Positions 155 to 64,000 of a stretch of DNA of 64,000 bases are shown piece after piece. Position 1 is the stretch's first letter. Every line of letters begins with the position of its first letter. The DNA is from a virus. The notes below the pieces were generated by a model that saw nothing but the letters and a program-made list of their open reading frames with translations, was not told where the DNA came from and did not search any database. The DNA is taken from the IMG/VR virus record IMGVR_UViG_3300012204_000007, positions 1-64,000 of that record, one strand, 5' to 3'. Both the position numbers and the translations under genes were made by a program.

Positions 155-229
155 TAGACTGGCCGGTAGGCATAAATCGCGGTGTTAAATCCTGTGCAGC
201 CTACCGGCCGGTACTATTGAGAGGTTACA

Positions 230-544
230 ATGAGCCACGGACTTAAACTCTGGATTGACAATATAGAGGAACCACCAGACGATACCTGGGAGTGGGTTAC
301 TACTTCTGAGGCAGCAATTGCTACATTGGACTTCTTCTCTGACGAAGGCATGCTTTGGTGTCCGCGAGAGGCTATCTCATTTACCTATAGTTTGGCTGGT
401 GACGATACAACCGTACCGGTATTGGCGTGGATGGTCAAAAATAAATTCTACTTCGACCATTACATGACACACTGCAAAGACTTGGTCAAGAACGAATGGC
501 TAGTAGACACGATTGATGCAAACCTCCGAAACTCAAAAATGTAG
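230..544 (+). CDS. cyclic-phosphate-processing receiver-like domain protein (degenerate)
   Basis: LWIDNIEEPP..WEWVTTSEAAI resembles LWLDD.RP.P..W..A motif; GAGG RBS; next to RNA ligase. Confidence 0.55.
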   Translation: MSHGLKLWIDNIEEPPDDTWEWVTTSEAAIATLDFFSDEGMLWCPREAISFTYSLAGDDTTVPVLAWMVKNKFYFDHYMTHCKDLVKNEWLVDTIDANLRNSKM

Positions 545-565
545 GAGATTTTCAGACTCGTCGTA

Positions 566-790
566 ATGTTTTCTGATATGAGAAAAGGTATTGAAATGCA
601 GGATAAAACTTATCCGTGGTTCCCAACAAATACAGATTATGAAAAGCAGTATGTTCGTGACCGACAGGGAACCGTTTGGTTGCTTGCTCACGACGGAGGC
701 ATGGTCACCACGGCAGACTACACTGGACAAGTATACAGCGCCGGTATAGAGTGGTTGAGAACCAACTATGGACCATTGGAGGAACTATAA
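566..790 (+). CDS. hypothetical protein
   Basis: ORF stop overlaps the RNA ligase start (TAATG). Confidence 0.6.
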   Translation: MFSDMRKGIEMQDKTYPWFPTNTDYEKQYVRDRQGTVWLLAHDGGMVTTADYTGQVYSAGIEWLRTNYGPLEEL

Positions 791-1485
791 TGGAAACTTA
801 TCACAAGATACAGACACTTTGGAAAAGATATCAAGACGGCCCAAATAAGGGCAAGATGATTCATAATGCCTGGACCACACCAGAACTAGAATACCTCGCC
901 GGTAATCAATGGGAGTTTACCGAGAAGGTAGATGGCACCAACATACGTATTGGGCATTATGGAATGTCTAATATACATGGGCAACACACCTTCAATAAGA
1001 TTGACTTGCGTGGACGTTCCGACAGTGCTACCATACCTGTAGCACTGCTAGAATATCTAAAAGATACCTTTACATCGGGTCTATTCACAGATGCTGGGCT
1101 AGACAACGTAACTCTCTTTGGGGAAGGGTATGGCCCAAAGATTCAGAACGGCGGTAACTATCGCACAGACCCATCATTCGTTTTATTTGATGTTAAGATT
1201 GACGGCTGGTGGTTACATAGAAAGGATGTAAATGACATCGCTTCAAAGTTGGGCATCGATTCTGTACCGATAGTTGGCGTTGGCACATTATACGATGCAA
1301 TTCATCTAGTATCTGGTTGGGATTATCAAGACCATGGCACCGGAGAGATGATACATGTGCCACCCATGAGGTCTACTTGGGGTGACTTCGAAGCAGAAGG
1401 AATCATAGCGCGGCCGGTAGTTCCTATGTTCGACCGCAAGGGAGAGCGCATCATAACCAAAATCAAGGCGGTAGACTTTAGGTGA
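790..1485 (+). CDS. RNA ligase, Rnl2-like
   Basis: motif I EKVDGTN, FGEGYG, FVLFDV, EGII, C-terminal KIK; ATG 790 coupled to upstream stop. Confidence 0.85.
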   Translation: METYHKIQTLWKRYQDGPNKGKMIHNAWTTPELEYLAGNQWEFTEKVDGTNIRIGHYGMSNIHGQHTFNKIDLRGRSDSATIPVALLEYLKDTFTSGLFTDAGLDNVTLFGEGYGPKIQNGGNYRTDPSFVLFDVKIDGWWLHRKDVNDIASKLGIDSVPIVGVGTLYDAIHLVSGWDYQDHGTGEMIHVPPMRSTWGDFEAEGIIARPVVPMFDRKGERIITKIKAVDFR

Positions 1486-2252: not shown

Positions 2253-2267
2253 TGATATACTAATTAC

Positions 2268-2608: not shown

Positions 2609-2612
2609 CGAG

Positions 2613-7272: not shown

Positions 7273-7406
7273 CAAGGCTTGACATCGTCTGGCCGGTATG
7301 GTACGATTGACTAGTCAAGCACCAAGGGTTGGGGTGGATTGAACTAGGATGAAAGACTTAGTCCAAGTTGCTTGACAGGTAGGATAGCAAGTGCTAGACT
7401 ACTCAT

Positions 7407-11026: not shown

Positions 11027-11065
11027 GGCTTGACATACCGGCCCCGGTAGTGTAGAGTAGTACTT

Positions 11066-11856
11066 GTTGGTGGGCGAAGCCGCACCAACCAAATTATTCT
11101 AAAAATAAATAATGAAACAACGTCGTCTGGGACGATATGGTTGGGTGACCAACTGAAAGGAGGGCTGGCAGCCTTCCACCTAGCAATAGGCAAATCCAGA
11201 CAAGGCTAGTCTTTAGGCAATCGTTACGGCGGTTGTAGGAGAACAAAGCAGCCCCGTCCGAGAGCATCTGCGGAGGACACCCGGTAGGGTAAAAGGGAAT
11301 ACATGCGAAACTCCAATAGACTAAGTGAGATACTAAGTGCGAGGCTGCAACCAAGTGCGGGTATCATGAAACCATAGTGGGGATAGACATATCCTGACAA
11401 CGGTCACAGATTGTGAGTAGTCGCAAGCGAAAGCATATGATGGAGTGAAGCATTTTGTAATCCAAAAGGTTACGGAACTTCATGGAGAAGCACTTCGTCT
11501 GCCAAACCCCTAGCGGGACGGGTTGCCCCGCTCTTTTAATATGGATATACTAAAGCAAAAGACTTCTCCCGTCACAAGTCGATAGCGTCTTAATGGCTGA
11601 CCGTAAGGAATCAGCCCACGAGGAAGGCCGCAAGCCCAATCGTGTTGGTGTGCAAGTAGTGCAGTTTAGAGATTTAGCGGTCTCTCTACGAAACAAAAGC
11701 AGCCGAGTAGACTGTGATGTAAAGGGTGCTGGCCTTAAGCCAGTAGACGCGGTTCGTACGGTAGGAATACCGTGGATACGTTGGGAATCAATAATCCAAC
11801 CAAAGCGAATCATGTATGGGTTGAGTCCAGGCCCACACAACGCTCCCTCGGGAGCG
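11066..11856 (+). ncRNA. large structured RNA, GOLLD-like
   Basis: about 790 nt without a credible ORF, own promoter, many GNRA-capped hairpins, within tRNA cluster. Confidence 0.65.
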
Positions 11857-16013: not shown

Positions 16014-16030
16014 CAGATTAAGGAGGACCA

Positions 16031-22429: not shown

Positions 22430-22624
22430 ATGACAAACAAGCAGATTAACAGAGAGTTGAAGTCTTGGGCTAGCATTCGGCAAGACTGGATTGACAGACT
22501 TGTAAAGCAGCCCAGCAACAATCAGGCTTGTTTGCACATTATTCAAATCAACTCCAAGATGGAAATGCTTAGGTGCCAGTGGAACTGGAACGACGAATTG
22601 GTTGAAATGGAGGTCGTATCGTAA
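22430..22624 (+). CDS. hypothetical protein
   Basis: TAATG coupling to next gene. Confidence 0.6.
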   Translation: MTNKQINRELKSWASIRQDWIDRLVKQPSNNQACLHIIQINSKMEMLRCQWNWNDELVEMEVVS

Positions 22625-23358
22625 TGAAGATGTTTCAAGTAGGCGGGTTCGTCCGAGACGAACTGCTTGGTGTAAAGTCAAAAGATATTGACTTCTCCGT
22701 TGTGTTGGATACCGACGAGCACCAGCGCTTCAATCACGTAGACCCCTTTAAGTACATGGTTAGGGTGCTGGAAAATGAAGGTTTTGAGATTTTCCTTGAG
22801 AAGCCTGAATTTCTTACTGTTACCGCTCGCTTTCCCAAGAGCGCCGGTAAGGCCGTAACCGCCGACTTTGTATTGGCTCGCAAAGAATCTGGTTACACAG
22901 ACGGACGCAGGCCCGACAAGGTCGAGCCCGGTACTCTTCTAGACGACCTGTCAAGACGTGACTTCCGTATGAATGCTATCGCCAAGGACTCCGATGGTAC
23001 TCTCATCGACCCGTTTAATGGTGTGGGCGACATTGAGGCTCGCATTATCAGGGCTGTCGGAGACCCGATGGAGAGGCTTACAGAGGACGCTCTGCGCGCG
23101 GTACGTGCTCTTAGGTTTTCTGTGACCAAGGGGTTCATCATTGATGTGCAACTGACCAACGCACTTCACTCTACCGATGTTGCTATTATGCTAGAGCGTA
23201 TCAGCGACGAGCGTATCCAGCAGGAACTGTCAAAGATGTTCAGATACAATACGACAGCAAGCATCAGGCTCCTTAATGCATTTCCTAAGTTGACCAGTGC
23301 AATCTTCTCTGGTAGTGTGTCGCTTGATGCAACGATGAAGACGAAGGGTAGAGGTTAA
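22624..23358 (+). CDS. cca: tRNA nucleotidyltransferase (class II CCA-adding enzyme)
   Basis: VGGFVRD..KDIDF, DLSRRDFRMNAIA, EDALRAVRALRF, ERIQQEL. Confidence 0.9.
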   Translation: MKMFQVGGFVRDELLGVKSKDIDFSVVLDTDEHQRFNHVDPFKYMVRVLENEGFEIFLEKPEFLTVTARFPKSAGKAVTADFVLARKESGYTDGRRPDKVEPGTLLDDLSRRDFRMNAIAKDSDGTLIDPFNGVGDIEARIIRAVGDPMERLTEDALRAVRALRFSVTKGFIIDVQLTNALHSTDVAIMLERISDERIQQELSKMFRYNTTASIRLLNAFPKLTSAIFSGSVSLDATMKTKGRG

Positions 23359-30254: not shown

Positions 30255-30502
30255 CCAATTCTAATATACAAATAACATTTACGAATGGTCAATTTATAAA
30301 GCCTGCTGTTACATCAAATGGTAATGGTCTCTTAGATTTCAATACTCACGCTAAACCATTACCGTGTTATGTCAGGAAGGGCGGACCTAAATCACGTATC
30401 TACTGTGAGGTATTCAAACATGTACCGCATGAGTTACACTGTGGTAGGTCTCGCACAGGTAGATGGTGGTCATGGGTTGACAAGCCGCTGCCGGTAGTGT
30501 AG
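30251..30502 (+). CDS. small Cys/His protein
   Basis: ATGA overlap; C..C...H...H motif. Confidence 0.55.
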   Translation: MTNSNIQITFTNGQFIKPAVTSNGNGLLDFNTHAKPLPCYVRKGGPKSRIYCEVFKHVPHELHCGRSRTGRWWSWVDKPLPVV

Positions 30503-30512
30503 AGTAGTTCTT

Positions 30513-40224: not shown

Positions 40225-40507
40225 TGAATTCGATGTAGTGCACCTTGATGAGGAAGAGACACAAAACGTTGTTGAGTGGGCGGTGCGAGCAGCCGCTATG
40301 GTGCTTTTGCTCAGCGATATGCCAGAGTTTGACGATGACCCAGTAGCATCAAACAAGACATATGAAAGAGTCGTTGAGTTAATGAGTGGTGATATTCCAG
40401 AGTGCCTGGTACCGTCTGCTATTACGTTAGCCAATGAGTCAGTAGCCTTTGCCGTTGAAGCAGAAGCAACAATCGAAGAGTTTAAAGCAGAACTAGACGA
40501 ACTATGA
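40217..40507 (+). CDS. hypothetical acidic protein
   Basis: AAGGAG RBS. Confidence 0.65.
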   Translation: MSDEFDVVHLDEEETQNVVEWAVRAAAMVLLLSDMPEFDDDPVASNKTYERVVELMSGDIPECLVPSAITLANESVAFAVEAEATIEEFKAELDEL

Positions 40508-40707
40508 CACATTATTTGGACTATGAAGGCACGGGAGACAGCATAGACCTAGGTGAATATATGACTAGGATATGTGTATGTGGGTCTGAATGGTTCAAAA
40601 CTGTTATTCAGATAGATGAAGACTATGAGATTGCTGCATATGGCCTCGACGCAGAATGTATTGAGTGTGGTTCAAGGGTAAAATTGCCCTCTCCTGCCGA
40701 TAGGTAA
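40504..40707 (+). CDS. small Zn-ribbon protein
   Basis: CVCGS..ECIECGS..P.P.D. Confidence 0.7.
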   Translation: MTHYLDYEGTGDSIDLGEYMTRICVCGSEWFKTVIQIDEDYEIAAYGLDAECIECGSRVKLPSPADR

Positions 40708-42741: not shown

Positions 42742-43027
42742 TTCATCAAAAAGACACGCCATGTATCTGCGGTCATCTATACTACAGGCACATTATAGTC
42801 TATGACATGATGGCGCGCCAATCGATAGAACACTGCATGTATTGTGATATTTGTAGTGTATTCCGAGAAGATAATGGGAACAGCGTATGATGCGAGAGGC
42901 GACACGCCTTCTATGGCTAGAACTAACCGATTACATCTTTCGAATCGGTTGTTATTCAAAAAAAGTAGGGTCTTGACATACCGTCGCCGGTAGTATAGAC
43001 TGTGGCTACACCTAGCGAAAGGAGCCC

Positions 43028-48441: not shown

Positions 48442-48529
48442 GGTGTAACCTTACCTCATATTCTCTACCGGCGTCAAGACGCTGTGTGCTTTTGCCCACC
48501 ATGTTTCACTGTTGGGCATTTACAAAAGA

Positions 48530-48650
48530 TACAACAAGGCCCGAGCATCGTCGTGGCGATGCTCGGGCCGGTATGTGAAGGTGGATTGACCGTCAAACTC
48601 CTTATGCCCTAGCCTGCCGACTGATAGGGCCACCTTCGTTATGTTGTGTA
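48530..48650 (-). ncRNA. candidate small RNA cassette
   Basis: promoter TTGACA-N17-TACACT, stems, terminator, no credible ORF. Confidence 0.5.
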
Positions 48651-48698
48651 ACAAGTGTAGCAGACGGGCGGTAGCGTGTCAACTACCGCCCGTCGTGG

Positions 48699-49049
48699 TC
48701 ACTCAGCCAGACGCTCAGCCTCAAGAGCCAGCGCGAGCAGGTCCTTGTCGAAACGACCACGCTTACCAGCCGGGTGACCGAGCAGCGCGCGGGCGTGCTC
48801 CGTGGTGACAGTGACAGGCTTGGTCGTCTTGCGACCACCCGCGAGCATCACGACATTCACGGTGATGGTCCGCTTCTCAGCCTCGGAAGCGACCACGTAG
48901 ACCTTGCTGCGGTTGGCCTTGTTGAAGGCGGCGATGATGTCCGGGTTGAGTCGGCCTCGGGTACCGGGAGCCTTGACGCCCTCGGGCTTGGCCTCGTTGA
49001 ACCACTCGCGTACGGCGCTGGCGGGAACGTTGGTCTTCTTGCTAGCCAT
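48699..49049 (-). CDS. lsr2: Lsr2-like DNA-binding protein
   Basis: SAVREWF..GTRGRLNPDIIAAF; second KRGRF motif. Confidence 0.78.
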   Translation of the reverse strand: MASKKTNVPASAVREWFNEAKPEGVKAPGTRGRLNPDIIAAFNKANRSKVYVVASEAEKRTITVNVVMLAGGRKTTKPVTVTTEHARALLGHPAGKRGRFDKDLLALALEAERLAE

Positions 49050-49266
49050 GGTGTTTCTCCTTAGAGTTGTTGTTGGTTGGCTTATGAGTGATACTCTACG
49101 CGATTCTGGTGTTGCTGTCAAGCCTTTTGAGAAGTTTTAACCGCCGAACATGATGCCATAGACGATGGCACCGAGCATCGCAAGGACTGGCCACATGCCG
49201 ATTATGGCAAGGCCAAGACATAGACCGAGCGTTACCATGGCGGCTATTAATATGCGGTCGATACAA

Positions 49267-49635
49267 TCACCGCCTTTCTTCAATGCTGACAGTGATGAAA
49301 TTGTGAATCGTGGGGGTGTTACACATGTGGTTAGTGAGACTCACCCGACACGTGTTGCAACACTCACGCATGGAATACGTCTTACCGTCAGCATCCCGCG
49401 CGAGGTATTCCTTCTCAGGAAAGCGGAAATCATCAGGCGAGAGATAGGGAGAATCTCCATCCTTCTTGACCTCGGGAGCCTTGTCAGACTTGACTACCGG
49501 CGCGCCGGTAGTAGAATCAGAGAATCGCATACCCTCAGACTCAGCCTTAACAAGTGCCTCTTTTGCGGCATTGGAGAACTTGCCACGGCCAGGCTTAGCC
49601 AGACCCTTTGAAACGAGGTAATCACGCTTGTTCAC
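49267..49635 (-). CDS. Lsr2-C-like/AT-hook hypothetical protein
   Basis: RDYLVSKGLAKPGRGKFS; C-terminal CCNTC..H.C. Confidence 0.55.
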   Translation of the reverse strand: MNKRDYLVSKGLAKPGRGKFSNAAKEALVKAESEGMRFSDSTTGAPVVKSDKAPEVKKDGDSPYLSPDDFRFPEKEYLARDADGKTYSMRECCNTCRVSLTNHMCNTPTIHNFITVSIEERR

Positions 49636-49865
49636 TTTGCCTCCTGAGGAATTGAGTAATCAAGCGGAACAACCACGACATTGTTTTCACAAATCATGGG
49701 ACCATCGTTGGCTAGGTCTCCGCTGTTATGCACATAGACAGCCTCTGGATAGGTTGCCAATCGGAAGACGGCAGGACAGCCTTCACAGAAGACGCGGTTG
49801 GAATACGGGACGTTGAGCACGAGGGTATGAAGGTGCATGGTGTTCCTTTCTCTTGAGATAAGCAT
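49632..49865 (-). CDS. hypothetical protein
   Basis: GTGA overlap with downstream gene. Confidence 0.55.
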   Translation of the reverse strand: MLISRERNTMHLHTLVLNVPYSNRVFCEGCPAVFRLATYPEAVYVHNSGDLANDGPMICENNVVVVPLDYSIPQEAK

Positions 49866-49905
49866 ACCCCATTGTAATGGGTATGTCCAGCCCTATGGGC
49901 TGGCA

Positions 49906-50211
49906 TCACCACCAGGGGCGAACAATAGGGTCAATGTACTCGGAGAGGTTCACGCCGTGGTCGCAGGCGACTTCCTCAGGGTCATTGCCGAGAACAAAGA
50001 AGATGAATGATGTACGACCATCGGGCAGGTCGACGTACACAATGGCCTCATCTACGTTGGTAACTAGGTCAACAGCCTCCTGCACGGAACTGACTTCCTG
50101 AGTCTCCTCTGGATTCCATGTATCGTCACCCACGCTTGTGACCTTGCAGCCCACGTTGGTGAGACCGTCAAGGATGAGAGTGATGGCTTCGCGGTCGTTG
50201 CTGGGCTTCAT
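49906..50211 (-). CDS. hypothetical protein
   Basis: AAGGAG RBS; FVLGNDPEEVACD motif. Confidence 0.75.
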   Translation of the reverse strand: MKPSNDREAITLILDGLTNVGCKVTSVGDDTWNPEETQEVSSVQEAVDLVTNVDEAIVYVDLPDGRTSFIFFVLGNDPEEVACDHGVNLSEYIDPIVRPWW

Positions 50212-50382
50212 TGAAACTCCTTGGTTCGTTTGGCTGGTAAGTACAGCGTAACAGAAAATCCCAGTGATTACAAGGCTCTATCGTAATGGGATTATATGGG
50301 ACGCGGGCAAAATGAAAATGCCCAACACGATGGTGGGCAAAACGGTAGGATATAGAAAAGCCCCGCCGAAGCGGGGCTAATC

Positions 50383-50733
50383 TTAGTCGTTAGCGCAACG
50401 AACCGGGTCGTCGGCGTCCATGCCCTGGCGATAGAGCGGAGCGCCGTCCGGGTCGGTGGCCTGAGTCCAGCCATCGGACTCATCGGCATTCCAGTCGTAG
50501 TCCCAAACCTTTCCGCACGACATGCACTCGCCGTGCAGGTCATCAATCCAGTCGAGGTCGCCACCAGTGCACCAGCGCTGGTCGCGCTCACACGGAGCCT
50601 CGCCGTCGTTGTCGTAGAAGTGGTCGGCTTCATAGTCCGCTTGCGCGTCCATGTCCAGTTGCTGCTCGAATCGCCACGCGGCGCCATCCATGATGGGCTC
50701 GCCGTCTTCGTTGGTCCATCCATAATTGCTCAT
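50383..50733 (-). CDS. acidic hypothetical protein
   Basis: GC3-rich codons, terminator downstream. Confidence 0.7.
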   Translation of the reverse strand: MSNYGWTNEDGEPIMDGAAWRFEQQLDMDAQADYEADHFYDNDGEAPCERDQRWCTGGDLDWIDDLHGECMSCGKVWDYDWNADESDGWTQATDPDGAPLYRQGMDADDPVRCAND

Positions 50734-51007
50734 GGTGCAATCCTACTCGTCATCGTTGGGGTTGTCAAGGACCGGCACGCCATCTTCAAGATGATAACGC
50801 GGGTCATGCGTGAGGCATGAATGGGTTTCGTCTGGTGTGTCATACATATATTAATTACACTACCGTCGTATTTAAAAGTCAAGTCTTTAATGGAAATGCC
50901 CACCATCCTCCGGATGGTGGGCAAAACCGCCGGTAGGCGGTTTTGCTATTAACTGAATGCCCCTATTACAATAATGACAATGACAACAATAACAATTGCC
51001 ACCATCA

Positions 51008-51553
51008 TTACTTAATTCCCTTCTCACGTCGCCAGGTAATCCAGGTAATAGCCTGAATCTGGTTTACCGAGATACCGGCTTCGTTGGCAGCCACAGAATA
51101 CGCGGCAGCCATATCCCGATAGATGCGCTTACCAATCTTGCGTGTCTTATCGGTAAACACCTGGTTCATGGCGATATCGAATGCGTGACGGTCGATGGTG
51201 GCAATGTTTGCCTTACCATTGGTGGCAATTGCTGTTGCGAAGTTGCGTGTCTTATCCCCACGCATAACATCTAGCGGATGCTCACCGTCGAGAATGCGCT
51301 GCGCATATGCAGTATGAATACTGATATGTCCTGAGACAATGCCGGTATCGAATGCGTTACGCGCAAGTCTGACATTGAGATTCCATGTTTTGAGCGGAGA
51401 TAGCGCGGCAATAACACCGGCACCGCGCCACACATTATTAGGGGATAATTCGAGCGCGAGGTTATGAGCCTCGTTATACCAGACCATTCCGGCGGCATTG
51501 TCGTCAGCGGTGGCGCGCGCAAAGCACGCGGCGATATTCTCTGAATACGTCAT
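51008..51553 (-). CDS. conserved phage protein (DUF7178-like)
   Basis: G..WY..A, AGVIAALSP..W..N, TIDRHA, QAITW. Confidence 0.75.
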   Translation of the reverse strand: MTYSENIAACFARATADDNAAGMVWYNEAHNLALELSPNNVWRGAGVIAALSPLKTWNLNVRLARNAFDTGIVSGHISIHTAYAQRILDGEHPLDVMRGDKTRNFATAIATNGKANIATIDRHAFDIAMNQVFTDKTRKIGKRIYRDMAAAYSVAANEAGISVNQIQAITWITWRREKGIK

Positions 51554-51716
51554 GGCACCATTGTACGCGCTAGGAGCAGACGGCGCAAGCCCCAGCGGAA
51601 ATGCCCAATAGGTAGTGATGGTGGGCAAAACCAAAATAGTATTGCGCTGGCGGCCGGTATGCCGTATTGTTGTCTTTGTCAGGGGGAACAGCCCCCAATC
51701 AGACTTAGGAGCAATC

Positions 51717-51914
51717 ATGGCTCGACGCAGGACTCGCACTGTCAGCATTCCGACCACGTTCGTTGGCACGTTCTATGACGTGCAGGCGGGTGTCTACGTT
51801 GCCACTCGCAGGGATGGCAGCCTCACCGTGGGCGCTATCAACAAGCGCGGCGTCAATGTGCAGGCTGCGGACTTGGTCATCGGTTCTGACCCGGCTGTCT
51901 ACACGGAGCACTGA
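51717..51914 (+). CDS. hypothetical protein
   Basis: AGGAG RBS. Confidence 0.65.
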   Translation: MARRRTRTVSIPTTFVGTFYDVQAGVYVATRRDGSLTVGAINKRGVNVQAADLVIGSDPAVYTEH

Positions 51915-51915
51915 C

Positions 51916-52062
51916 ATGGATGAGGTCGATGAGGTCATCCAGTCGTGGGCCATGGTAGCGGAAGTTATCTATGAGCGCAGGACGGCAGGTGACCACACTT
52001 GGTCAGGCTTCCTCAGTGAGTTTTTGACTGAGGTCGACAAGGCGCGCGAGAGCGTATCGTAA
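51916..52062 (+). CDS. hypothetical protein
   Basis: GGAG RBS, terminator after. Confidence 0.6.
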   Translation: MDEVDEVIQSWAMVAEVIYERRTAGDHTWSGFLSEFLTEVDKARESVS

Positions 52063-52172
52063 CCAAAACCCCACTGTAAAAGGTGGGGTTTTGGTATGTC
52101 TTTCGTAAATGCCCAGCACAAGATGTTGGGCAAAAGCGTTAGATATAAGAAAAGGGCCCGAAGGCCCTTGAC

Positions 52173-52373
52173 TTAGTCTTTATGGAGTCTGACTGTCACT
52201 GTCTGATGGAATGGAGGCTTATAGCGGTCGACGCTCCACCCAAAGAGAGAGTGCGGGTCCTCATTGACAGCGGCCATGGCGAAACCGACAATCATGTCCT
52301 CTGAAACGGCACCGATGTTTTCCACCATGACCTCGGTCACGGTCTTTCCACGGTCAATTGAACGAATGTTCAT
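52173..52373 (-). CDS. hypothetical protein
   Basis: GGAG RBS, terminator after. Confidence 0.6.
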   Translation of the reverse strand: MNIRSIDRGKTVTEVMVENIGAVSEDMIVGFAMAAVNEDPHSLFGWSVDRYKPPFHQTVTVRLHKD

Positions 52374-52374
52374 A

Positions 52375-52548
52375 TCAGAACTCCACTCGAATCTCAATGG
52401 TGCGATACCAAACGGTATCGTCCTTGGAAGCCATGATGCTGGCAACGGCGGCGATGCCCTCAGCCACGTTGTCACCTTGATAGAAAGGCATGTCCACTGG
52501 TTCCTGTGGGTTGGCGCTGGTGCTCTGGACCTTCTGAATAACTCTCAT
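52375..52548 (-). CDS. hypothetical protein (57 aa)
   Basis: leaderless behind TTGACA..TAGTCT. Confidence 0.6.
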   Translation of the reverse strand: MRVIQKVQSTSANPQEPVDMPFYQGDNVAEGIAAVASIMASKDDTVWYRTIEIRVEF

Positions 52549-52646
52549 GTCTAAAGACTACGCTCTCTAGGTGGCTGTGTCAAGTGGATATGGAAATGCC
52601 CAACACTTCGTCTGGTGGGCAAAACCGGGCCGGTAGGCCCGGTCTG

Positions 52647-52880
52647 CTAGTAGTCCACGTCCTCGAATTCGTATTCCTCATCAAACGAGGTAACGATTGT
52701 GATTGGGTCGAATGGTCCGACAGAGATGAAAGTGTGAACCGCATCTTCATCAACAATGTCGAGTTCGATAAAGTCTCCATCGTCATTGATGGAATAGATA
52801 TATCCAAGCAAGCATCCGTCATTATCGAGAAGGAAGTCATTGTTCTCGATAACGTACGCGAACACTACGTCAGTTTTCAT
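52647..52880 (-). CDS. acidic hypothetical protein
   Basis: terminator after. Confidence 0.65.
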   Translation of the reverse strand: MKTDVVFAYVIENNDFLLDNDGCLLGYIYSINDDGDFIELDIVDEDAVHTFISVGPFDPITIVTSFDEEYEFEDVDY

Positions 52881-53046
52881 TGGTATCCCTTACTCTCTTT
52901 GCAATGTCATGGAGCAACTTGCTAGCGTGCCGCTCGGCTGACCGAAACGAACGGAATGCTCTTGGCTTGCCATCCTTGGAAACACGAATGCCGGTATAGA
53001 GACTACGAATGTAGTATCGCCGACCGTACCTTTCTACTTCAAACAT
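52870..53046 (-). CDS. basic hypothetical protein (58 aa)
   Basis: MFEVERYGRRYYIRSL...; TAATG coupling. Confidence 0.55.
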   Translation of the reverse strand: MFEVERYGRRYYIRSLYTGIRVSKDGKPRAFRSFRSAERHASKLLHDIAKRVRDTNEN

Positions 53047-53294
53047 TAGGACACTTTGACCGTGTCTCCAACACGCACAATCTGACCGTAAAACTTACGG
53101 TTTTTGTACGGGTCGGGGCCGACGAAGTAGTGTGTTACGCCCTGAGGCATATCGACCACGCGACCGCTGTATTCGTTGCCAAAAACAGAAGTTGCTTCCA
53201 GCCTGACAAGAAAACCATTGCCCTCGGCAATAGTATCTTTGATTGCCTTTTTTGACTTGGGCCTTCCAGCGCCAATCCAGATACCTTGCGTCAT
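53046..53294 (-). CDS. hypothetical protein
   Basis: AGGAGG RBS; RPKSKKA..ATS.FGNEY.G..VGPDPY..R.FY. Confidence 0.75.
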   Translation of the reverse strand: MTQGIWIGAGRPKSKKAIKDTIAEGNGFLVRLEATSVFGNEYSGRVVDMPQGVTHYFVGPDPYKNRKFYGQIVRVGDTVKVS

Positions 53295-53543
53295 GATTCC
53301 TCCTAGAGTTTGGTCCACCAGAATGGTAGCACAGTGGCAAGCCACCATGCAACCACGAGCCAGGCGATTGTAAGAACAACCTTCCCGCGTGTGGTCATGA
53401 GTAAAGGCTAGCACGATTGCCCGAGATACGCAAGCGCAATCGTAATGGCAATATTCAGGGTGAAGGGCATTGTGGAAATGCCCACCACAGTGTTGGGCAA
53501 AACCAAAGGATACAAACAAACCCCGGTTTCCCGGGGCTGTTTG

Positions 53544-53771
53544 TCAGAAAGCGAACCCGAACTTGGTTCCGCTGTCGTTGCTGTCCGCCTCGACACCACT
53601 ATGCCACTCCCACCCGAGAACGGTAGCGAGCACACCAGCCGCGTGTCCGTGGTTCCATGCGGTTGACTTGGAAAGGTCGAGCGGCGTCGTACGCTGCACG
53701 CCGCCACCCTTCGCACGAATCTTTGGGGTGCCGTTCACGTTCACGTACTCAGTACGAATGATGTTGCTCAT
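53544..53771 (-). CDS. hypothetical protein
   Basis: AGGAG RBS. Confidence 0.7.
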   Translation of the reverse strand: MSNIIRTEYVNVNGTPKIRAKGGGVQRTTPLDLSKSTAWNHGHAAGVLATVLGWEWHSGVEADSNDSGTKFGFAF

Positions 53772-53956
53772 TAGTTCTCCTGAAAGCGTCGGTTGACATG
53801 CTTGGACTTACGGTTATACTTGGTACCCGAAGGTACCGGCGAAGTTGCGGAAGACTTACGCAATTCTATCATTGCGTCAATGTAATGGCGGTTGCCAGCC
53901 TTGCGTGACTGATTACGCCGATTCTTACCGCTCTGGCGATTGGTCCTGTTTGCCAT
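53771..53956 (-). CDS. basic hypothetical protein
   Basis: ELRKSSAT..KYNRKSKH. Confidence 0.65.
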   Translation of the reverse strand: MANRTNRQSGKNRRNQSRKAGNRHYIDAMIELRKSSATSPVPSGTKYNRKSKHVNRRFQEN

Positions 53957-54174
53957 TAGTCGACCGCCATTCCAATAATGCCCTCGCGCTTGAGAATACG
54001 AATCTCAGTCTCAGCGTCCTTACGTAGATTCAGAGTGGCCGCCTTAATGAAACGCTCGCGGTCAAACTGTTCATTGAATTCTCCGCACATGTCAGCAAAG
54101 TCACAGACAAGTGCGAGATTGGCGCGGTTGGCGTCGAGGGTGTGGGCGATGGCTTCAAAGTGCTTTCTGGTCAT
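53956..54174 (-). CDS. hypothetical protein
   Basis: MTRKHFEAIA..N..FDRERFIKA phage motif; leaderless. Confidence 0.75.
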   Translation of the reverse strand: MTRKHFEAIAHTLDANRANLALVCDFADMCGEFNEQFDRERFIKAATLNLRKDAETEIRILKREGIIGMAVD

Positions 54175-54305
54175 GGGTAAAGACTAGCCTATCGTAACAG
54201 ATGAGTCAAGTAGTGATGGGCAATGATTTGATAATGCCCACCATCAATCTTGTGGTGGGCAAAATGAGAGAATAAAAGAAAAGGGCCGGTAGGCCCTTGA
54301 CTTTC

Positions 54306-54626
54306 TCAGTATTCGCGGTCGCTCTGATAATACTGCTCTTCCCAGTAGTCACGCTCGCGCTGAGCCTCCATCATGTCGTACTCCCGTGCGGCCAGCGTCT
54401 CCCACTGCTGTTCGGTCTCGCGCTCTTCCCAGTCGAGCACGGTCTGTAGTTCGTCGCGGTCGTGTTGGGTGACGGACTCCATGTCAGACTCTGACACGTA
54501 CCGGCGAGATTCGGGGTCGGTCTGGTCGTGCTCCCACGTGGGGTGGTTGTCATCCCACTCTTCGGCGTGCGCCTGGCGCGCGGTGTTGGTACGGCTGTCG
54601 GGGTCAAAGGCTTCGATGTAGGTCAT
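54306..54626 (-). CDS. acidic hypothetical protein
   Basis: leaderless behind TTGACA-N17-TACGAT. Confidence 0.7.
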   Translation of the reverse strand: MTYIEAFDPDSRTNTARQAHAEEWDDNHPTWEHDQTDPESRRYVSESDMESVTQHDRDELQTVLDWEERETEQQWETLAAREYDMMEAQRERDYWEEQYYQSDREY

Positions 54627-54807
54627 GTGACCATCGTACTTCACGATTCCCAGGGATGTCAAGGCCCTATCGTAATGGCGTGAAGTGGGGTGGCGGGTCT
54701 TTTGAAAATGCCCACCATCTGCATGTGTTGGGCAAAACCAAAACGCATTGAAAATACCCCGCTTGACATAGCCACTACTCCATGTCAAGCGGGGTAAGAT
54801 GGTGGGG

Positions 54808-55029
54808 TCAGACGTGCTTGAGTTCGCGCAGGGCCGCTTCGGCAATGTCGGTGCCGAACTTGTCCGCGAGGAAGATGCGCGAACCCATGAGGTCGCCCGT
54901 GCGGCGCAGGTCGCGGTACTTGCCTCGTCCGCTCGCGTACTCGACAGCGGTCAGGATGAGCGCGTTGCGCTTGGCAGCCTTGTCGGCGTGGTTGTGAAGG
55001 ACGGTGGCGGGAGTCGGGTTCTTGGTCAT
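54808..55029 (-). CDS. hypothetical protein
   Basis: leaderless behind TTGACA..CATAAT. Confidence 0.7.
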   Translation of the reverse strand: MTKNPTPATVLHNHADKAAKRNALILTAVEYASGRGKYRDLRRTGDLMGSRIFLADKFGTDIAEAALRELKHV

Positions 55030-55209
55030 GTCTCTATTATGGGCCATGTGGGAGAGTGGTGTCAACAGATAATTTGAAAATGCCCAACAGGTGTTGGGCA
55101 AAACCCCGAGTTAGCGGGGTTTTGCGACAAAGGGCTTAGGCGATGGTAACCTAGGCACTGGCGGCGGGTATTGAATCTGCATAATTCCTCCTAATTCATG
55201 ATAACACAA

Positions 55210-55524
55210 TTACTTGCAAAGACCATGAACCGTGTAACCATAGTCCTGTGAGGTGGTTCCCTGCAATATGGCTTTATTGACAATGGCCATATTGCCGGTA
55301 TAGGTAACATCACCGTTCGGAAGGGTGACCACCGCGTGATGCGGGTAGCCATCCTTGGGCTGACAGCGCTCCATGAGCACAACGGGGCTTCCAGCAGGGT
55401 GGGGGCGCGTGTCAGCGGCAGGATTGGCCTGCGCCTGGAATGATGTGAAGGCAACATGAACCGCGAAGGCGAGAATCGCAAGAATCTTCACAATATGTGC
55501 GTCACGCTTGGTCGGCTTGTTCAT
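55210..55524 (-). CDS. secreted hypothetical protein
   Basis: signal peptide ending AQA. Confidence 0.65.
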   Translation of the reverse strand: MNKPTKRDAHIVKILAILAFAVHVAFTSFQAQANPAADTRPHPAGSPVVLMERCQPKDGYPHHAVVTLPNGDVTYTGNMAIVNKAILQGTTSQDYGYTVHGLCK

Positions 55525-55953
55525 ATCCCAAGATTAGCACATGTTATCGTAATCGCGCAATATAGGATACCGGGCATTCCCAAAATGCCCAACACTGCGT
55601 GTGTTGGGCAAAAAGATAATTTTCAAGCGGATTATTGACTTTATCGTAATCGTGTGATACCGGGTGCTGGGCATAGTTGGTTGCCGAAGGCAACCATTGC
55701 ATGTGCATAGGCATACTGCCGGTATGCCAGGGTGCCGCCGGTATGGTCACATACCCTCAGTACGTTGTCCCATGCATTGTTTGTCTCACAGTGTGGTCTT
55801 CCCCCAGTCCACAGAATGGACACTTTCAAACTACTTTCATGTGTTTCCGCAGGTCAGAGCGTTGCGCCCAAGTTTTTACCTTTCTGCTGGGCATATTCCC
55901 TATGCGTGTCCTACCTTGGTACTGCAACACAAACCACTACCTAGGAGCACACC

Positions 55954-56139
55954 ATGGCAAGCACAAGCGTCCCTCGGGCGGAGATTCAGCCGGGCATGAT
56001 TCTGCGCTCGACGCGGTGGAGTGAACTGCTCATCCTCAGCGCACCGAACAGTCGCGGCATGGTTCGTTGTGAAACGTACGATTCCACGGGCACGGCAATT
56101 GTCGTTGTCCTTCCCTACAAGGTCATTAGGTGGCTCTGA
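55954..56139 (+). CDS. hypothetical protein
   Basis: AGGAG RBS. Confidence 0.6.
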   Translation: MASTSVPRAEIQPGMILRSTRWSELLILSAPNSRGMVRCETYDSTGTAIVVVLPYKVIRWL

Positions 56140-60997: not shown

Positions 60998-61216
60998 CTA
61001 GAATGGGGGTGTCAACTCTTCTGTACTAAGGATTTCCTTGCCGGGCGTGGGGTGTCTATCACGGCTTGCACGGAGTTCATCATAACACTTCACATGTGCA
61101 AGATGTGAACCTTGCTTCTTGGTGCAGTCAAAGTAGACCAAAGTGCTGTGTGGGAACTCTTTTTTGCAGATTGCACACATTCCCGCTCTTATTGTTAATC
61201 CTGTCCATGCTGGCAA
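60998..61216 (-). CDS. small Zn-binding protein
   Basis: CAIC..HVKC. Confidence 0.55.
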   Translation of the reverse strand: MPAWTGLTIRAGMCAICKKEFPHSTLVYFDCTKKQGSHLAHVKCYDELRASRDRHPTPGKEILSTEELTPPF

Positions 61217-61438
61217 AAGAAAATCCCCTAATAACCCCTTAAGAAAAGTATTACTTCAAAGAAGTAATACTAGAACTTGTTTTATATTATATTAATATAA
61301 TATGTAACTCTTAGTTACACTCTTGTTAGTATACTTGTATTGGTGTTCTTCCTTAGGACCAATTATACACAGCATATGTCAAGTTGGCACCATTGTCAAG
61401 TTACGATAGAATAGATGTATCTAGATAGGATTTTATAA

Positions 61439-62374
61439 ATGAAGGTTTCTTTTAACCAAACTAGTTCCCCAAACGTCAGGGCTACTAATGGATATGGCTA
61501 TGCTGCCAAGATGTGCAGGGAGTCTTTGATAAGGCTTGGACATTCTGTAGATTGGCGTGACGATACCGCCGATGTTGAGATTAACTTCATTCAACCCGAG
61601 AACTGGCACTGGACGGGCCCATATCGTATAGCCTATCTTCCTTGGGAGTCTACAGGGCTGCGCGACGGCTGGTCCTCGCTGTTGAACGAGGTTGACGAGG
61701 TCTGGACGCCCTCACCAGTAATCGCACAGTGGTTTGCGGACGCTGGGGTCACCAAGAACATACGCATTTATGAGCATGGCGTAGAGAGGCTCTGGGAGCC
61801 CTATCTGAGACCGCTCGACGGCACTTTCCGCATTCTTCACCATGGCGGTGAGGCTTTGCGCAAGGGCGGTAACGAGACAATCCGCGCCTTCCTTACCAAG
61901 TTAGGCGACGAGGATGCTCAACTCGTGTTGAAGATGATTCTTCAACAGTTTAACCTCCACGACACAAAGCACATCCAACTTCTTCTAAAGAAGGTTGATA
62001 TTGATGAACTTGTTGCAATCTATCACGGATGTAGCATGTTTTGCTATCCTTCGTGGGGAGAAGGGTTTGGCCTAACTCCGTTACAGGCAATGGCGACCGG
62101 TATGCCTATTTTGATTACCGATGGCTGGGCACCATATGCCAGATTCATTCCTGAGAATAGCTTAATAAAATCTGAGTTAGTTGAGTCTCCTTGGCAGTCA
62201 CATCATCCTGGGATGATGTTCAAGCCAGATGAAGACGACCTACGAGATAAACTGCGCTGGCACTTTGATAACCGTGAATCAGAACGAGACCGCGCATTCA
62301 ATATTGCTGAAACAGTACGTTCTGAGTATGATTGGGACACACTAACAGCCGCAGCATTCGCTCATCTTATCTAA
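61439..62374 (+). CDS. GT-B (family 4-like) glycosyltransferase
   Basis: PWES, RKGG, YPSWGEGFGLTPLQAMATGMP. Confidence 0.9.
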   Translation: MKVSFNQTSSPNVRATNGYGYAAKMCRESLIRLGHSVDWRDDTADVEINFIQPENWHWTGPYRIAYLPWESTGLRDGWSSLLNEVDEVWTPSPVIAQWFADAGVTKNIRIYEHGVERLWEPYLRPLDGTFRILHHGGEALRKGGNETIRAFLTKLGDEDAQLVLKMILQQFNLHDTKHIQLLLKKVDIDELVAIYHGCSMFCYPSWGEGFGLTPLQAMATGMPILITDGWAPYARFIPENSLIKSELVESPWQSHHPGMMFKPDEDDLRDKLRWHFDNRESERDRAFNIAETVRSEYDWDTLTAAAFAHLI

Positions 62375-62458
62375 GCAAAAATTTATCTGAGTGGGTCGCC
62401 TTAGAACCCATACGCTGCTATGCTTAGAGAACCACATTTTTTACTAGGAGCGTTAAAA

Positions 62459-64000
62459 TTGAACACTATTTTGGATGAAAAGGGCATGATTAAAGACTCT
62501 TACAGGTCTTTCATTGCAGCAAGTCGTTACAGTAGATGGCTCGATGACGAAGGTCGTCGTGAGTCATGGACAGAGACGGTAGATAGATATATTAACTATA
62601 TGCATAACCATGTTAATACAAACTATACCGGCGCAATTTCTGACACATTTTGGTTAGAAGCCAGAGAGGCAATTCTTAATCATAAGGTTATGCCGTCTAT
62701 GCGGGCGCTGATGACAGCCGGTAAAGCATTGGAGCGTGAGAACCTAGCATCCTATAACTGTTCATTTATTGCAATTGATGACCCGAGGTCATTTGATGAA
62801 GCGCTTTATATCCTGATGAATGGTGTTGGTTTAGGATTTTCTGTAGAAAAAGAGCATATTGCTAAACTACCACTCGTAGATGAGCATTTTGAGCAGTCTG
62901 GCTCAACCATCGTGGTTGCAGACTCTAAGGCAGGATGGGCGCGTGGTCTGCGTGAGTTGATTGCAATGCTTTACGCTGGTCAGATTCCCAGCATTGATAT
63001 TACTAATGTTCGCCCAGCGGGAGCAAGATTGAAGACATTCGGTGGCCGCGCCAGCGGGCCACAGCCTCTAATCGACCTATTTGACTTTACTATTGATATC
63101 TTCAAGAATGCCGCCGGTAGGAAACTAACCCCAATCGAAGCACATGACATTATGTGTAAAATTGGAGAGGTGGTAGTTGTTGGTGGTGTTCGTCGCAGCG
63201 CACTTATCTCTTTGTCTGACCTATCCGACTATGATATGGCTAAATCAAAGTCTGGCGCATGGTGGGAGTCAGAGCAACAGCGGGCATTGGCCAACAATTC
63301 TGTAGCCTATTACAAGAAGCCTTCTATTGGTGAGTTCTTAACAGAGTGGGGGCATCTATATGAATCTAAGTCGGGCGAGCGCGGTATTATCAATATGGAT
63401 GGTCTTCGCAAGCACACAAATGCCCCACGTAGAGACTTATCTCAAATAATGGGCCTCAACCCTTGCGGAGAGATTCTACTACGCTCTAAGCAGTTGTGCA
63501 ACCTTACAGAAGTGATTGTTGACTCTGAGGATACACCCGCCGACCTCGTAAAGAAAATTGAAATTGCTACAACATTGGGTACCATCCAGTCTAGCCTTAC
63601 AAATTTCAAATATCTTCGAAAGGTTTGGAAAGACAACTGTGAAGAAGAACGTCTATTGGGTGTTTCTCTTACCGGGCAACTTGGACACCAGACATTGTCT
63701 GGTGCGGCAGGTATAGACTCTTTGATACATCTGCTTACACAGATGAAAGAGGTTGCTATTGACCAAAATAGAATAATTGCTGAGTCAATGGGAATTAACA
63801 TTTCCACCGCGATTACTACAGTAAAGCCTTCTGGCACTGTATCTCAGTTAACAGCCTCATCTTCTGGAATGCATCCATGGCACAATGACTATTACATTCG
63901 TTCTGTTCGTGGTGATAACAAGGACCCAATTACAAAGTTCTTAAAGGATATGGATATTCCTAACGAGCCGGATGTAACCAAACCAGGCTCAACAACTGTA
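62459..64000 (+). CDS. nrdJ: class II (B12-dependent) ribonucleotide reductase, 5' part
   Basis: TTG start after AGGAG; SRYSRW..GRRESW.ETV.R, MPSMRAL, NPCGE, CNL, VKPSGTVS; runs off window. Confidence 0.93.
   Translation, partial: MNTILDEKGMIKDSYRSFIAASRYSRWLDDEGRRESWTETVDRYINYMHNHVNTNYTGAISDTFWLEAREAILNHKVMPSMRALMTAGKALERENLASYNCSFIAIDDPRSFDEALYILMNGVGLGFSVEKEHIAKLPLVDEHFEQSGSTIVVADSKAGWARGLRELIAMLYAGQIPSIDITNVRPAGARLKTFGGRASGPQPLIDLFDFTIDIFKNAAGRKLTPIEAHDIMCKIGEVVVVGGVRRSALISLSDLSDYDMAKSKSGAWWESEQQRALANNSVAYYKKPSIGEFLTEWGHLYESKSGERGIINMDGLRKHTNAPRRDLSQIMGLNPCGEILLRSKQLCNLTEVIVDSEDTPADLVKKIEIATTLGTIQSSLTNFKYLRKVWKDNCEEERLLGVSLTGQLGHQTLSGAAGIDSLIHLLTQMKEVAIDQNRIIAESMGINISTAITTVKPSGTVSQLTASSSGMHPWHNDYYIRSVRGDNKDPITKFLKDMDIPNEPDVTKPGSTTV

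Follow-up and report, generated by a model that had tools for sequence, protein, structure and literature searches.

Why would a phage genome carry the same seven-letter word more than a hundred times, on both strands and inside genes as well as between them? The question is raised by the first 64,000 bases (the window) of IMG/VR record IMGVR_UViG_3300012204_000007 (hereafter G000; 120,830 bp, 94% complete, GC content 46%), whose closest named relatives are large Streptomyces phages of the Stanwilliamsviridae (rIIA 31-34% and capsid protein 59-64% identical) and whose sequence is contained in five public soil-metagenome DNA runs, with no RNA run among those listed. An earlier note, made from the letters of the window alone, had singled out the heptamer GCCGGTA as over-represented. 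Here we find that GCCGGTA is a genome-wide target of DNA-level selection, whereas its reader stays putative; a Chi-like 'self' word, read on one strand and controlling a helicase-nuclease that tracks along DNA, is the reading that we tentatively place first, as one possibility rather than as the expected answer.

A graded word selected at the DNA level

The window contains 109 exact GCCGGTA matches (72 on the plus strand, 37 on the minus strand) spanning 162..63119, in keeping with the counts made by eye in the earlier note (more than 60 GCCGGTA and more than 30 TACCGGC). Dinucleotide-preserving shuffles of the window (n=100) gave a mean of 5.20 (standard deviation 2.29, maximum 12) and none of the 100 reached 109, so that the excess is about 20 times chance; the shuffle value of ~2.6 per strand is close to the 3-4 that the note had expected. 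The full record is loaded in the same way, with 170 copies (123 plus, 47 minus) against 18.3 expected under a trinucleotide (M2) model, and with only 5 and 3 copies of the reversed word. Together with GGCGGTA, this makes 259 GSCGGTA copies in the full record.

The excess does not come from the encoded proteins or from codon usage. Our gene calls were made from open reading frames (ORFs) and codon scores and comprise 147 genes (76% of G000 coding), with 98 coding sequences inside the window. In these 98, we counted 50 sense and 21 antisense copies, when protein-keeping synonymous-codon shuffles gave 6.9 ± 2.6 and 3.3 ± 1.7, and shuffles that also fixed the bases flanking each codon gave 8.0 ± 2.7 and 4.4 ± 1.9. 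A codon-preserving shuffle had been set beforehand as the refuting test, and the over-representation stood (50/21 observed against 7-8/3-4). Across all coding sequences of the record, 94 sense and 30 antisense copies compare with 12.5 ± 3.2 and 6.7 ± 2.3 in synonymous-codon shuffles, and with 6.8 and 5.2 expected when codon order is permuted. The 21.2 kb of the window without a called gene, tRNA or transfer-messenger RNA (tmRNA) hold 26 plus and 10 minus copies against ~1.1 and 1.2 in first-order Markov simulations, although under these crude calls such 'noncoding' DNA still contains some uncalled small genes. Called genes harbor 124 of the 170 copies, and density outside genes equals density inside them. 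A codon or dicodon artefact was ruled out by the persistence of the excess under synonymous and junction-preserving shuffles. Because the word survives codon-aware null models and is equally dense outside genes, selection must act on the DNA itself.

The selected unit is a graded word with core CGGTA and preferred form G[C/G]CGGTA[G/T], not a strict heptamer: the GCCGGTA of the earlier note is its peak rather than its boundary. The core is present 621 times in G000 (389 plus, 232 minus) and is about three times as frequent as each of its one-mismatch neighbours, in G000 and in its relative G001 alike. Upstream of the core, G is favoured at -2 and C over G at -1 (GC 170, GG 89, CG 51), giving the series GCCGGTA (170), GGCGGTA (89, the second most enriched heptamer) and CGCGGTA (51). 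Downstream, G or T follows 80 of the 109 window copies. Outside -2..+1 the flanks carry about no information, which is limited to 5-7 bp. Among one-mismatch neighbours of the heptamer, those reached by transition number 25 (GCTGGTA), 13 (GCCAGTA), 11 (GCCGATA) and 15 (GCCGGTG), and those reached by transversion, for example, 13 (GCAGGTA) and 17 (GCGGGTA).

The word has left a clear imprint on coding. As the earlier note had remarked, copies lie in different frames: genome-wide, 56 sense copies read GCC-GGT-A and 34 xxG-CCG-GTA, only 4 and 2 fall in the frames that use the rare CGG codon, and 25 antisense copies read xxT-ACC-GGC. Ala-Gly pairs are encoded by GCCGGT in 69 of 204 cases, 56 of these 69 being followed by A, and never by GCCGGC. 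CCGGTA encodes 48 of the 109 Pro-Val pairs, and Pro-Val is itself the most over-represented dipeptide (109 vs 78 expected). Where the protein permits the word, it is spelled at 55% of Ala-Gly-A.. sites in G000 and 69% in G001, at 43% and 22% of Pro-Val sites, and at 18% and 14% of antisense Thr-Gly sites. Selection for the word thus biases both codon choice and dipeptide use. With over half of codon-compatible Ala-Gly-A.. positions spelling it, this is among the strongest sequence-level selection pressures in G000.

Copies occur on both strands, as the earlier note had said, and are spread evenly over the whole record: the coefficient of variation of the gaps (0.89 vs 0.99 ± 0.07 simulated) indicates near-Poisson spacing with no clusters. 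Neither position along a gene nor gene size alters the density, apart from a slight promoter-linked rise 50-75 nt ahead of gene starts, and genes unique to G000 (1.51 copies per kb) are loaded like conserved ones (1.29 per kb). This flat profile rules out a motif tied to starts or gene boundaries; the uninformative flanks and the Poisson-like spacing likewise rule out repeats in tandem or in clusters and mobile elements whose flanks are conserved.

Both orientations are enriched (4.5-fold for antisense copies in coding sequences), with a bias of 72:28 (2.6:1) toward the strand that codes most genes. Minus-strand gene blocks show 0 plus and 7 minus copies in G000 (57.3-61.0 kb), again 0 and 7 in G001, and 8 plus and 4 minus in a further G000 block (47.9-54.2 kb). 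With three enriched genomes pooled (G000, G001 and G407, see below), the realised fraction of possible sites is 0.30 sense and 0.11 antisense in plus-strand genes, 0.33 and 0.23 in minus-strand genes. The asymmetry therefore has a gene-linked part plus perhaps a genome-wide part, the minus-block numbers being too small to separate the two. The G000 and G001 records are circular permutations of each other, which masks the true genome ends.

Distribution among relatives and co-varying genes

Two related records share the trait. G001 (114.8 kb; DNA polymerase 74% identical to that of G000; circularly permuted) has 94 plus and 43 minus GCCGGTA copies, and G407 (126 kb) has 81 and 32, with GGCGGTA at 52/11. 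The synonymous-shuffle test gave 83/26 against 15/7.6 expected in G001 and 66/22 against 10.4/6.1 in G407. Per kb, GSCGGTA reaches 2.14 in G000, 1.88 in G001 and 1.40 in G407, and short contigs can be loaded too (L316, 14 + 11 copies in 6.8 kb; L313, 8 + 10 in 9.1 kb). What is conserved is density, not the individual sites, which turn over and mostly lack an orthologous counterpart in relatives. Of 53 G000 sense sites that could be aligned, only 12 are kept in G001 (7-mer identity background 6.9%), and where G001 lacks a G000 site it often shows several base differences plus amino-acid changes.

The distribution is patchy. Five named Streptomyces phages have 11-26 GCCGGTA copies per genome, and in 23 further IMG/VR relatives the GSCGGTA density is 0.05-0.66 per kb, with a mild excess (2.5-3.5x) in a few; with these 28 related records at or below 0.66 GSCGGTA per kb, a family-wide Stanwilliamsviridae trait was ruled out. 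The enriched G407 is farther from G000 than are the non-enriched Streptomyces phages Muntaha and Coruscant, in DNA polymerase (44% identity vs 53% and 50%), portal (47% vs 58% and 60%) and TerL (47% vs 52% and 53%). Judged from these identities, the enriched lineages appear to be two independent events. A word scan under the M2 model found no comparable word in Muntaha, and the top words of Coruscant are GC-rich hairpin stems and TA repeats. In the latter phage (L023-L029), GC-rich words such as GCGCCGGG and CGCCGGGC, with their complements, occur in ~30-40 copies and are 35-38x enriched; they resemble the stems of a repeated hairpin element (TATATATA, 38 copies).

We asked which phage genes follow the enrichment. 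By tblastn, 51 of the 147 called G000 genes match G407, and only 4 of the 147 are common to G000, G001 and G407 yet without a match in Muntaha and in Coruscant. Of the four, two are short or weakly conserved: a 67-residue ORF of unknown family (40504..40707, plus strand), whose absence elsewhere may be a detection failure because it is so short, and a 171-residue ORF of the tail module (77846-78361 of the record), 28% identical to its G407 match. The only annotated ones are a tRNA nucleotidyltransferase-like gene with a PolyA_pol head domain (22624..23358, plus strand) and a DUF7178 gene (PF23802, phrog_3842, E 4e-47; 51008..51553, minus strand), the ORF of which extends to 51769, homologues beginning at the ATG at 51553. 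Pfam and PHROGs searches with 10 small conserved ORFs returned nothing usable. PF23802 is present in all three strongly enriched genomes and in none of the 27 relatives checked (Muntaha, Coruscant, Blueeyedbeauty, Ankus and 23 IMG/VR records, of which 9 are 90% complete or more). DUF7178 is the best-supported gene that co-varies with enrichment, a link that we treat as a lead and not as a finding.

Structure prediction suggests what kind of protein this may be. An AlphaFold2 model of DUF7178 built from a 30-sequence alignment (30 of 80 loci; two rows, L252 and L275, were dropped for in-frame stops) reached pLDDT 95 and pTM 0.89. In a Foldseek search of the PDB its 14 best matches were all HhH-GPD DNA glycosylases, led by MjOgg bound to DNA (E 5e-3, prob 1.00, TM 0.56) and including Tm1821, SsOgg, MagIII, AGOG, OGG1 and MutY, none at E <= 0.001; an Atlas structure search concurred (TM 0.54-0.63). 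DUF7178 is thus predicted to have an HhH-GPD (Ogg2/Nth-like) glycosylase-like fold, two-domain and all-helical with a helix-hairpin-helix. Invariant in the 30 sequences are K101, in the helix-hairpin-helix, and D121, 20 residues further on at a helix start, positions that would correspond to the catalytic pair in the HhH-GPD signature of bifunctional members (an Asp ~20 residues after the hairpin, and a Lys within it for lyase activity). Because the DUF7178 profile matched no PDB sequence, this putative catalytic assignment is drawn from the fold.

DUF7178/phrog_3842 is common among other phages and phage contigs, and we found no paper naming it in the literature searched. A strong dispersed word (-log10P >= 10) was present in 8 of 67 DUF7178 loci of at least 9 kb and in 1 of 52 control loci; the eight fall in about four groups and are not independent, and the general association of DUF7178 with dispersed words is weak. 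One carrier, G408 (DUF7178 42% identical), shows no enrichment (20/15 copies vs 32/18 for the reversed-word control). An unrelated DUF7178-bearing group (G409, L208, L246, L247; loci L250 and L280 are also listed with it) has dispersed, flank-free words of its own. In G409 (L289-L290, 35 kb), AACGACA (core CGACA) has 56 copies (1.6 per kb) and CGTAGGG 33, neither strand-biased, and in coding sequences both exceed synonymous shuffles (22/32 vs 6.8/4.0 and 14/12 vs 1.2/3.5, respectively).

Other phage-encoded readers were searched for directly. In six frames of G000, PF00145, PF01555, PF02086 and PF01702 gave 0 matches at E <= 1, with positive controls matched; no C5, N4/N6 or Dam-type methyltransferase and no tRNA-guanine transglycosylase (TGT)/DpdA family was found, other enzyme kinds not being searched. 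This speaks against a modification protein of these kinds, modification being one of the classes named in the earlier note. The NusG NGN domain (PF02357) had no G000 match at E <= 10, with a control positive in 11 of 14 genomes. Of the two Lsr2-like proteins that the note had proposed to try as readers, neither is among the genes common to the three enriched genomes and lacking from Muntaha and Coruscant: the Lsr2 DNA-binding-domain protein (48699..49121, minus strand; PF23359 below cut-off) does not co-vary with enrichment, and the Lsr2-like N-terminal (bridging) domain protein (49267..49635, minus strand) has a homologue in Muntaha, which is not enriched.

Promoter-like sites, hairpins and gene content

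Promoter-like sites in G000 are of the TTGACA-17-TAnnnT kind, and five have the word at a fixed place of the spacer, a minority of all copies. All five lie on the plus strand, and the four spacers pointed out in the earlier note (near 7292, 11036, 30490 and 42986) are found among them. At 7279..7307, TTGACA-N7-GCCGGTA-TGG-TACGAT (sequence read directly) has the word at 7292. At 11030..11058, TTGACA-TACCGGC-CCCGGTA-GTG-TAGAGT has its 17-nt spacer taken up by the reverse word (11036), directly after TTGACA, and then a CCCGGTA variant; this site is paralogous to the promoter at 30477..30505 (TTGACA-N7-GCCGGTA-GTG-TAGAGT, word at 30490). The site at 42973..43001 (TTGACA-17-TAGACT, word at 42986) scored 10/12 consensus matches in a promoter scan and, like those with the word at 7292 and 30490, has the form TTGACA-N7-GCCGGTA-N3-TAnnnT. 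The fifth, at 49490..49517 (TTGACT-16-TAGAAT), carries TACCGGC (49495) and GCCGGTA (49504) back to back and is also a promoter-scan call. Beyond the word, the paralogous strong promoter copies at 11030-11075, 30477-30520 and G001 108929 have CGGTAGTGTA(G/T)AGTAGT.CTTGTTGG in common.

Hairpins with 7-9 bp stems and a GGTA loop carry three copies (50929, 52629 and 54285) at their apexes: AAAACCGCC-GGTA-GGCGGTTTT at 50923..50944 (plus strand; missed by the terminator scan), CCGGGCC-GGTA-GGCCCGG at 52625..52642 (plus strand), and AAGGGCC-TACC-GGCCCTT followed by a T run at 54281..54298 (minus strand, among minus-strand genes), the loop of which reads the word on the plus strand. The earlier note had called all three terminator-like; their place at stem apexes is as described, and only the one at 54281-54298 satisfies the terminator rule, on the minus strand. 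The latter belongs to a family of near-identical minus-strand terminator hairpins (47638-47655, 52152-52169, 54281-54298) of the form AAGG(G/C)CC-loop-GG(C/G)CCTT then TTCTT.TAT, in which the two sister hairpins at 52152-52169 and 47638-47655 have a TTCG loop and that at 54281-54298 has TACC. A general hairpin-forming element was ruled out, GGTA stems being no commoner than stems around nine control tetramers; stems of at least 5 bp around GGTA number only 4 in G000 and 3 in G001.

The window encodes 34 tRNA genes, a tmRNA, rIIA/rIIB, RNA ligases, ThyX, ribonucleotide reductase and glycosyltransferases. Beyond it lie structural and packaging genes (portal, protease, capsid, TerL, HNH), replication genes (DnaB-like helicase, DnaG-like primase, family-A-like DNA polymerase) and a recombination set (UvsX-like recombinase, SSB, Cas4-type exonuclease, two resolvases). 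The tRNA genes and the tmRNA (15625-16014, tag AEAEAILAEAALVTA) form an array at 2537-25018 among small ORFs, in which one GCCGGTA copy is the 5' end of the tRNA-Thr at 17878. A 189-residue protein at 20246-20815 (plus strand), also present in G001, has weak sub-cut-off matches to anti-CBASS Acb1 and to the 2H phosphoesterase / 2'-5' RNA ligase family. At 113328-115778 (L008 9328-11778), a cassette found only in G000 combines an unknown ORF with genes for an NAD-dependent epimerase/dehydratase and a DXD glycosyltransferase. For the epimerase, the closest bacterial match (52% identical) is in a metagenome-assembled genome, on a 76.7-kb contig binned as Thermotogae, the others being at most 30% identical; these bacterial matches give no pointer to the host.

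Short palindromes and Type IIG-like words are strongly avoided in G000 (AGCT 1 vs 373 expected; GATC, CTCGAG, GGATCC, GAGCTC and GCCGGC 0 each; CTGCAG and CCGCGG 1 each; GAGGAG and CTGAAG 2 each), and the avoided set varies among relatives (G001: AGCT 52, CTGCAG 16; G407: GATC 451, AGCT 0, CTGCAG 0; Coruscant: GATC 707). Finally, window positions 48000-56000 form a GC-richer island (53-54% vs 44-47% elsewhere) of low GC skew, which contains a minus-strand block with the two Lsr2-like genes and DUF7178, and which has more promoter-like (32 vs 17.8) and terminator-like sites (26 vs 11.6) than shuffles.

Candidate readers and known systems

What could read such a word? The earlier note had proposed a site for a DNA-binding, packaging, recombination (Chi-like) or modification protein; the genome-wide DNA target is borne out and no single class of reader is singled out. 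In the Chi-like reading, G[C/G]CGGTA (core CGGTA) would be a 'self' word whose density, rather than any individual site, is under selection and held at ~1.4-2 copies per kb, and which is read on one strand by a protein tracking along phage DNA, presumably a helicase-nuclease of the RecBCD/AddAB/AdnAB kind from a soil actinobacterial host. On meeting the word this enzyme would, as at Chi, halt the degradation of linear or concatemeric phage DNA, and the DNA end would then be passed to the phage UvsX/SSB/resolvase recombination-replication machinery. Three separate steps of this scheme are inferred: a nuclease as the reader, its origin from the host and its switching off on recognition.

We rank this reading first because it accommodates the graded variants, a biased enrichment in the two orientations, a density that is kept while sites turn over and the host-like patchiness, and because it has a precedent in phages. 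The series GCCGGTA > GGCGGTA > CGCGGTA fits a recogniser that is partly active on variants, and the patchy phylogeny, with G407 enriched and nearer phages not, fits a word set by the host. The word is short and asymmetric, is dispersed far beyond chance frequency in coding and noncoding DNA alike, and withstands codon shuffles in three genomes; searches for methyltransferase, TGT and NusG found no conventional phage reader, and the recombination genes of G000, as judged from their sequences, are of the kind that such a scheme would use. As to precedent, host Chi is strongly over-represented in some phages, mostly concatemer packagers (T5-like, P1-like), and likewise in phages that have recombinases and lack a RecBCD inhibitor (PMC3784561). 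In a 2026 AdnAB structure paper, Chi appears only in the reference list (PMC13000450), and as far as the literature examined goes, no actinobacterial Chi seems to have been described yet.

Several observations weigh against a Chi-like word. Among 401 Actinomycetota genomes (15 of them flagged unpublished), which may not include the phage host, we found no comparable GCCGGTA enrichment; the ratio of GCCGGTA to the reversed word, a poor control, was ~0.13-3.2 and below 1 in most. Five actinobacterial genomes read directly showed no clear strand skew (9:10, 12:7, 9:7, 29:18, 38:39), with observed/expected ratios of 1.00 and 1.12 under the M2 model in two of them. The phage has therefore not simply inherited actinobacterial word usage. 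Chi stands at 0.2 per kb in E. coli and its Rec- phages, with a phage median observed/expected ratio of 2.3-4.8 (PMC3784561); the phage word, at 1.4 per kb, is ~7x as dense and its fold enrichment is higher. Strand bias partly tracks gene orientation, with 0 plus and 7 minus copies in two minus blocks and 8 plus and 4 minus in the third. Last, within this phage family enrichment co-varies perfectly with the phage gene DUF7178, which points to a phage-encoded reader instead.

The latter alternative, in which a phage protein, DUF7178 being the best candidate, binds, flips, nicks or modifies the word and so marks or organises the whole genome, is in our view somewhat doubtful and nearly as probable as the Chi-like reading. 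It draws on the presence of PF23802 in three of three enriched genomes and none of 27 relatives, that is, two independent co-occurrences because G407 is a separate lineage; on how few genes co-vary (4 of 147, two of them short or weakly conserved); on the predicted HhH-GPD-like fold with K101 and D121 invariant; and on the second case offered by the G409 group, whose AACGACA and CGTAGGG also resist codon shuffles. However, most DUF7178 phages are without a strong dispersed word, as G408 illustrates, the DUF7178 profile lacks a PDB match, and the co-variation could just mean a shared host. A glycosylase/lyase acting at ~200 sites of its own genome would also be costly unless catalysis is blocked, and transition-reachable neighbours are not specially depleted, which counts against a mismatch-repair drive. 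A more specific version, which we consider rather improbable, is an undescribed form of self-marking: DUF7178 would flip or alter a base in a short word with which the genome is selected to be saturated, in 'dialects' that differ between lineages (G[C/G]CGGTA in the present phages; AACGACA and CGTAGGG in the other DUF7178-bearing group). If true, viruses would have a novel class of DNA marking directed by sequence, and the jumps of the trait between distant relatives along with one gene would be explained. Alternatively, the word may have no reader at all and be created by biased conversion, that is, context-specific mismatch repair or gene conversion of the very-short-patch (VSP) repair type, possibly by the HhH-GPD protein, that would turn near-cognate sequences into the word. 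Fast turnover of sites, newly acquired genes that are already loaded, enrichment of both orientations, the co-varying glycosylase-fold gene and the 2.5-3.5x enrichment of relatives without DUF7178, which suggests a continuum, would all suit it; yet transition neighbours show no deficit against transversion neighbours, which VSP-like action would produce, G001 counterparts of lost sites differ at several bases and amino acids, and known VSP effects on word frequency are, to our knowledge, below 2-fold. Replacement of a stable UUCG-type terminator loop by the word is also more easily explained by selection than by conversion, and we hold this alternative to be unlikely.

Equally unlikely, we think, is a role in priming, in which a phage DnaG/T7-type primase would start preferentially at the word, with 5'-CGGTA-3' on the lagging-strand template, a cryptic 3' A and the primer pppACCG(G/C)C. 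The phage encodes a DnaG-like primase and a DnaB-like helicase, enrichment would place strong GC-rich priming sites a few hundred bases apart in a genome of 46% GC, and the 5-mer core, the graded upstream preference, the use of both strands with one in excess and the even 0.3-0.7 kb spacing would all fit. T7 primase sites (GGGTC, TGGTC) share the format of N-G-G-T plus one 3' base. The primase, however, does not co-vary (31% identical between G000 and G407, 43.5% between G000 and the non-enriched Muntaha), strand bias partly flips with gene orientation, and we know of no primase sites that are over-represented in their genomes. We give still less weight to an ops-like element, which, exposed in the non-template strand of the transcription bubble, would help RNA polymerase to acquire or retain an elongation or anti-termination factor throughout the long one-directional operons of the phage. 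In ops, a G4-A7 loop with a flipped T6 is closed by a C3:G8 stem, and CGGTA(G) equals positions C3-G8 of GGCGGTAG (PMC5995543). GGCGGTA ranking as the second most enriched heptamer, the G or T after 80 of 109 copies, the sense (non-template) excess that flips in two of three minus-strand blocks and the few copies at hairpin apexes with a C:G closing pair would agree with it. Against it stand the absence of an NGN domain at E <= 10, the 4.5-fold antisense enrichment, hairpin-loop copies in minus blocks that lie on the template side of local genes, no conserved pause element after the word and no conserved bases beyond +1, and a hairpin potential around GGTA no higher than for control tetramers. 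RfaH is not known in Actinobacteria, and an operon has a single ops rather than one every 0.7 kb. The last alternative, a by-product of translation and restriction avoidance through favoured GCC-GGT / CCG-GTA codon pairs and avoidance of GCCGGC, is contradicted in its pure form by the shuffles in three genomes and is very improbable. It could call on the phage tRNA-Pro(CGG), tRNA-Val(TAC) and tRNA-Gly(GCC), on the lack of GCCGGC and of other palindromes (GATC 0, AGCT 1, CTCGAG 0) and on the mild sense-only GCCGGT(A/G) excess in structural genes of non-enriched relatives; but 6-7x enrichment is left after synonymous and junction-preserving shuffles and 20x or more where no gene is called, antisense copies are enriched too, and G000, G001 and G407 avoid different restriction sites, yet have the word in common.

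Should the Chi-like reading hold and the reader be a host nuclease, the word would be a direct candidate for the Chi of an actinobacterial AdnAB/RecBCD; should the reader be phage-encoded, DUF7178/phrog_3842, a widespread phage family, would gain its first testable role. In either case the word is a simple signature by which this phage group, and perhaps its host, may be recognised in soil metagenomes. Among the literature matches listed for GCCGGTA, which were primers or phage-end sequences, none was about this word.

Several known systems invite comparison. RfaH ops (GGCGGTAGnnTG) shares the core CGGTA(G), identical to ops C3-G8, together with a sense excess and some C:G-closed hairpin apexes (PMC5995543). 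Unlike ops GGCGGTAG, the phage word has C more often than G at position 2, and it occurs in 170 copies (47 on the other strand) with no pause element and no NusG-family gene in the phage. The stoperators of L5 and other cluster A phages are 13-bp sites, a few dozen per genome, that lie in short intergenic gaps and also in early promoters, are bound by the lysogeny repressor and are oriented with transcription. Here too an actinophage genome is sprinkled with an asymmetric word that also enters promoters, but the word is 5-7 bp long, has 170-259 copies, lies in called genes in 124 of 170 cases and is in opposite orientation in 28%. T7-type primase sites resemble it in their five-base N-G-G-T plus one 3' base, their use of both strands and their sub-kilobase spacing, and differ in that they are not known to be over-represented; the primase sequence, moreover, does not follow the phage trait. 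DNA uptake sequences and words of the KOPS/SRS type are features of cellular chromosomes and go with competence or FtsK/SpoIIIE machinery, of which none is seen in this phage; they share with the word a frequency of ~1 per kb, upheld by selection or drive, a reach into coding frames and an effect on codon and dipeptide use. As for Chi and RecBCD/AddAB, the word differs in that it is neither over-represented nor skewed in the sampled actinobacterial genomes, has only a putative cognate enzyme, is denser and of higher fold, and takes its polarity partly from gene direction. Yet like Chi in P1-like, T5-like and recombinase-less lambdoid phages, it is short, asymmetric, scattered over genes and spacers, over-represented and strand-biased, in a setting where density counts over position and where some phages copy the word of their host (PMC3784561).

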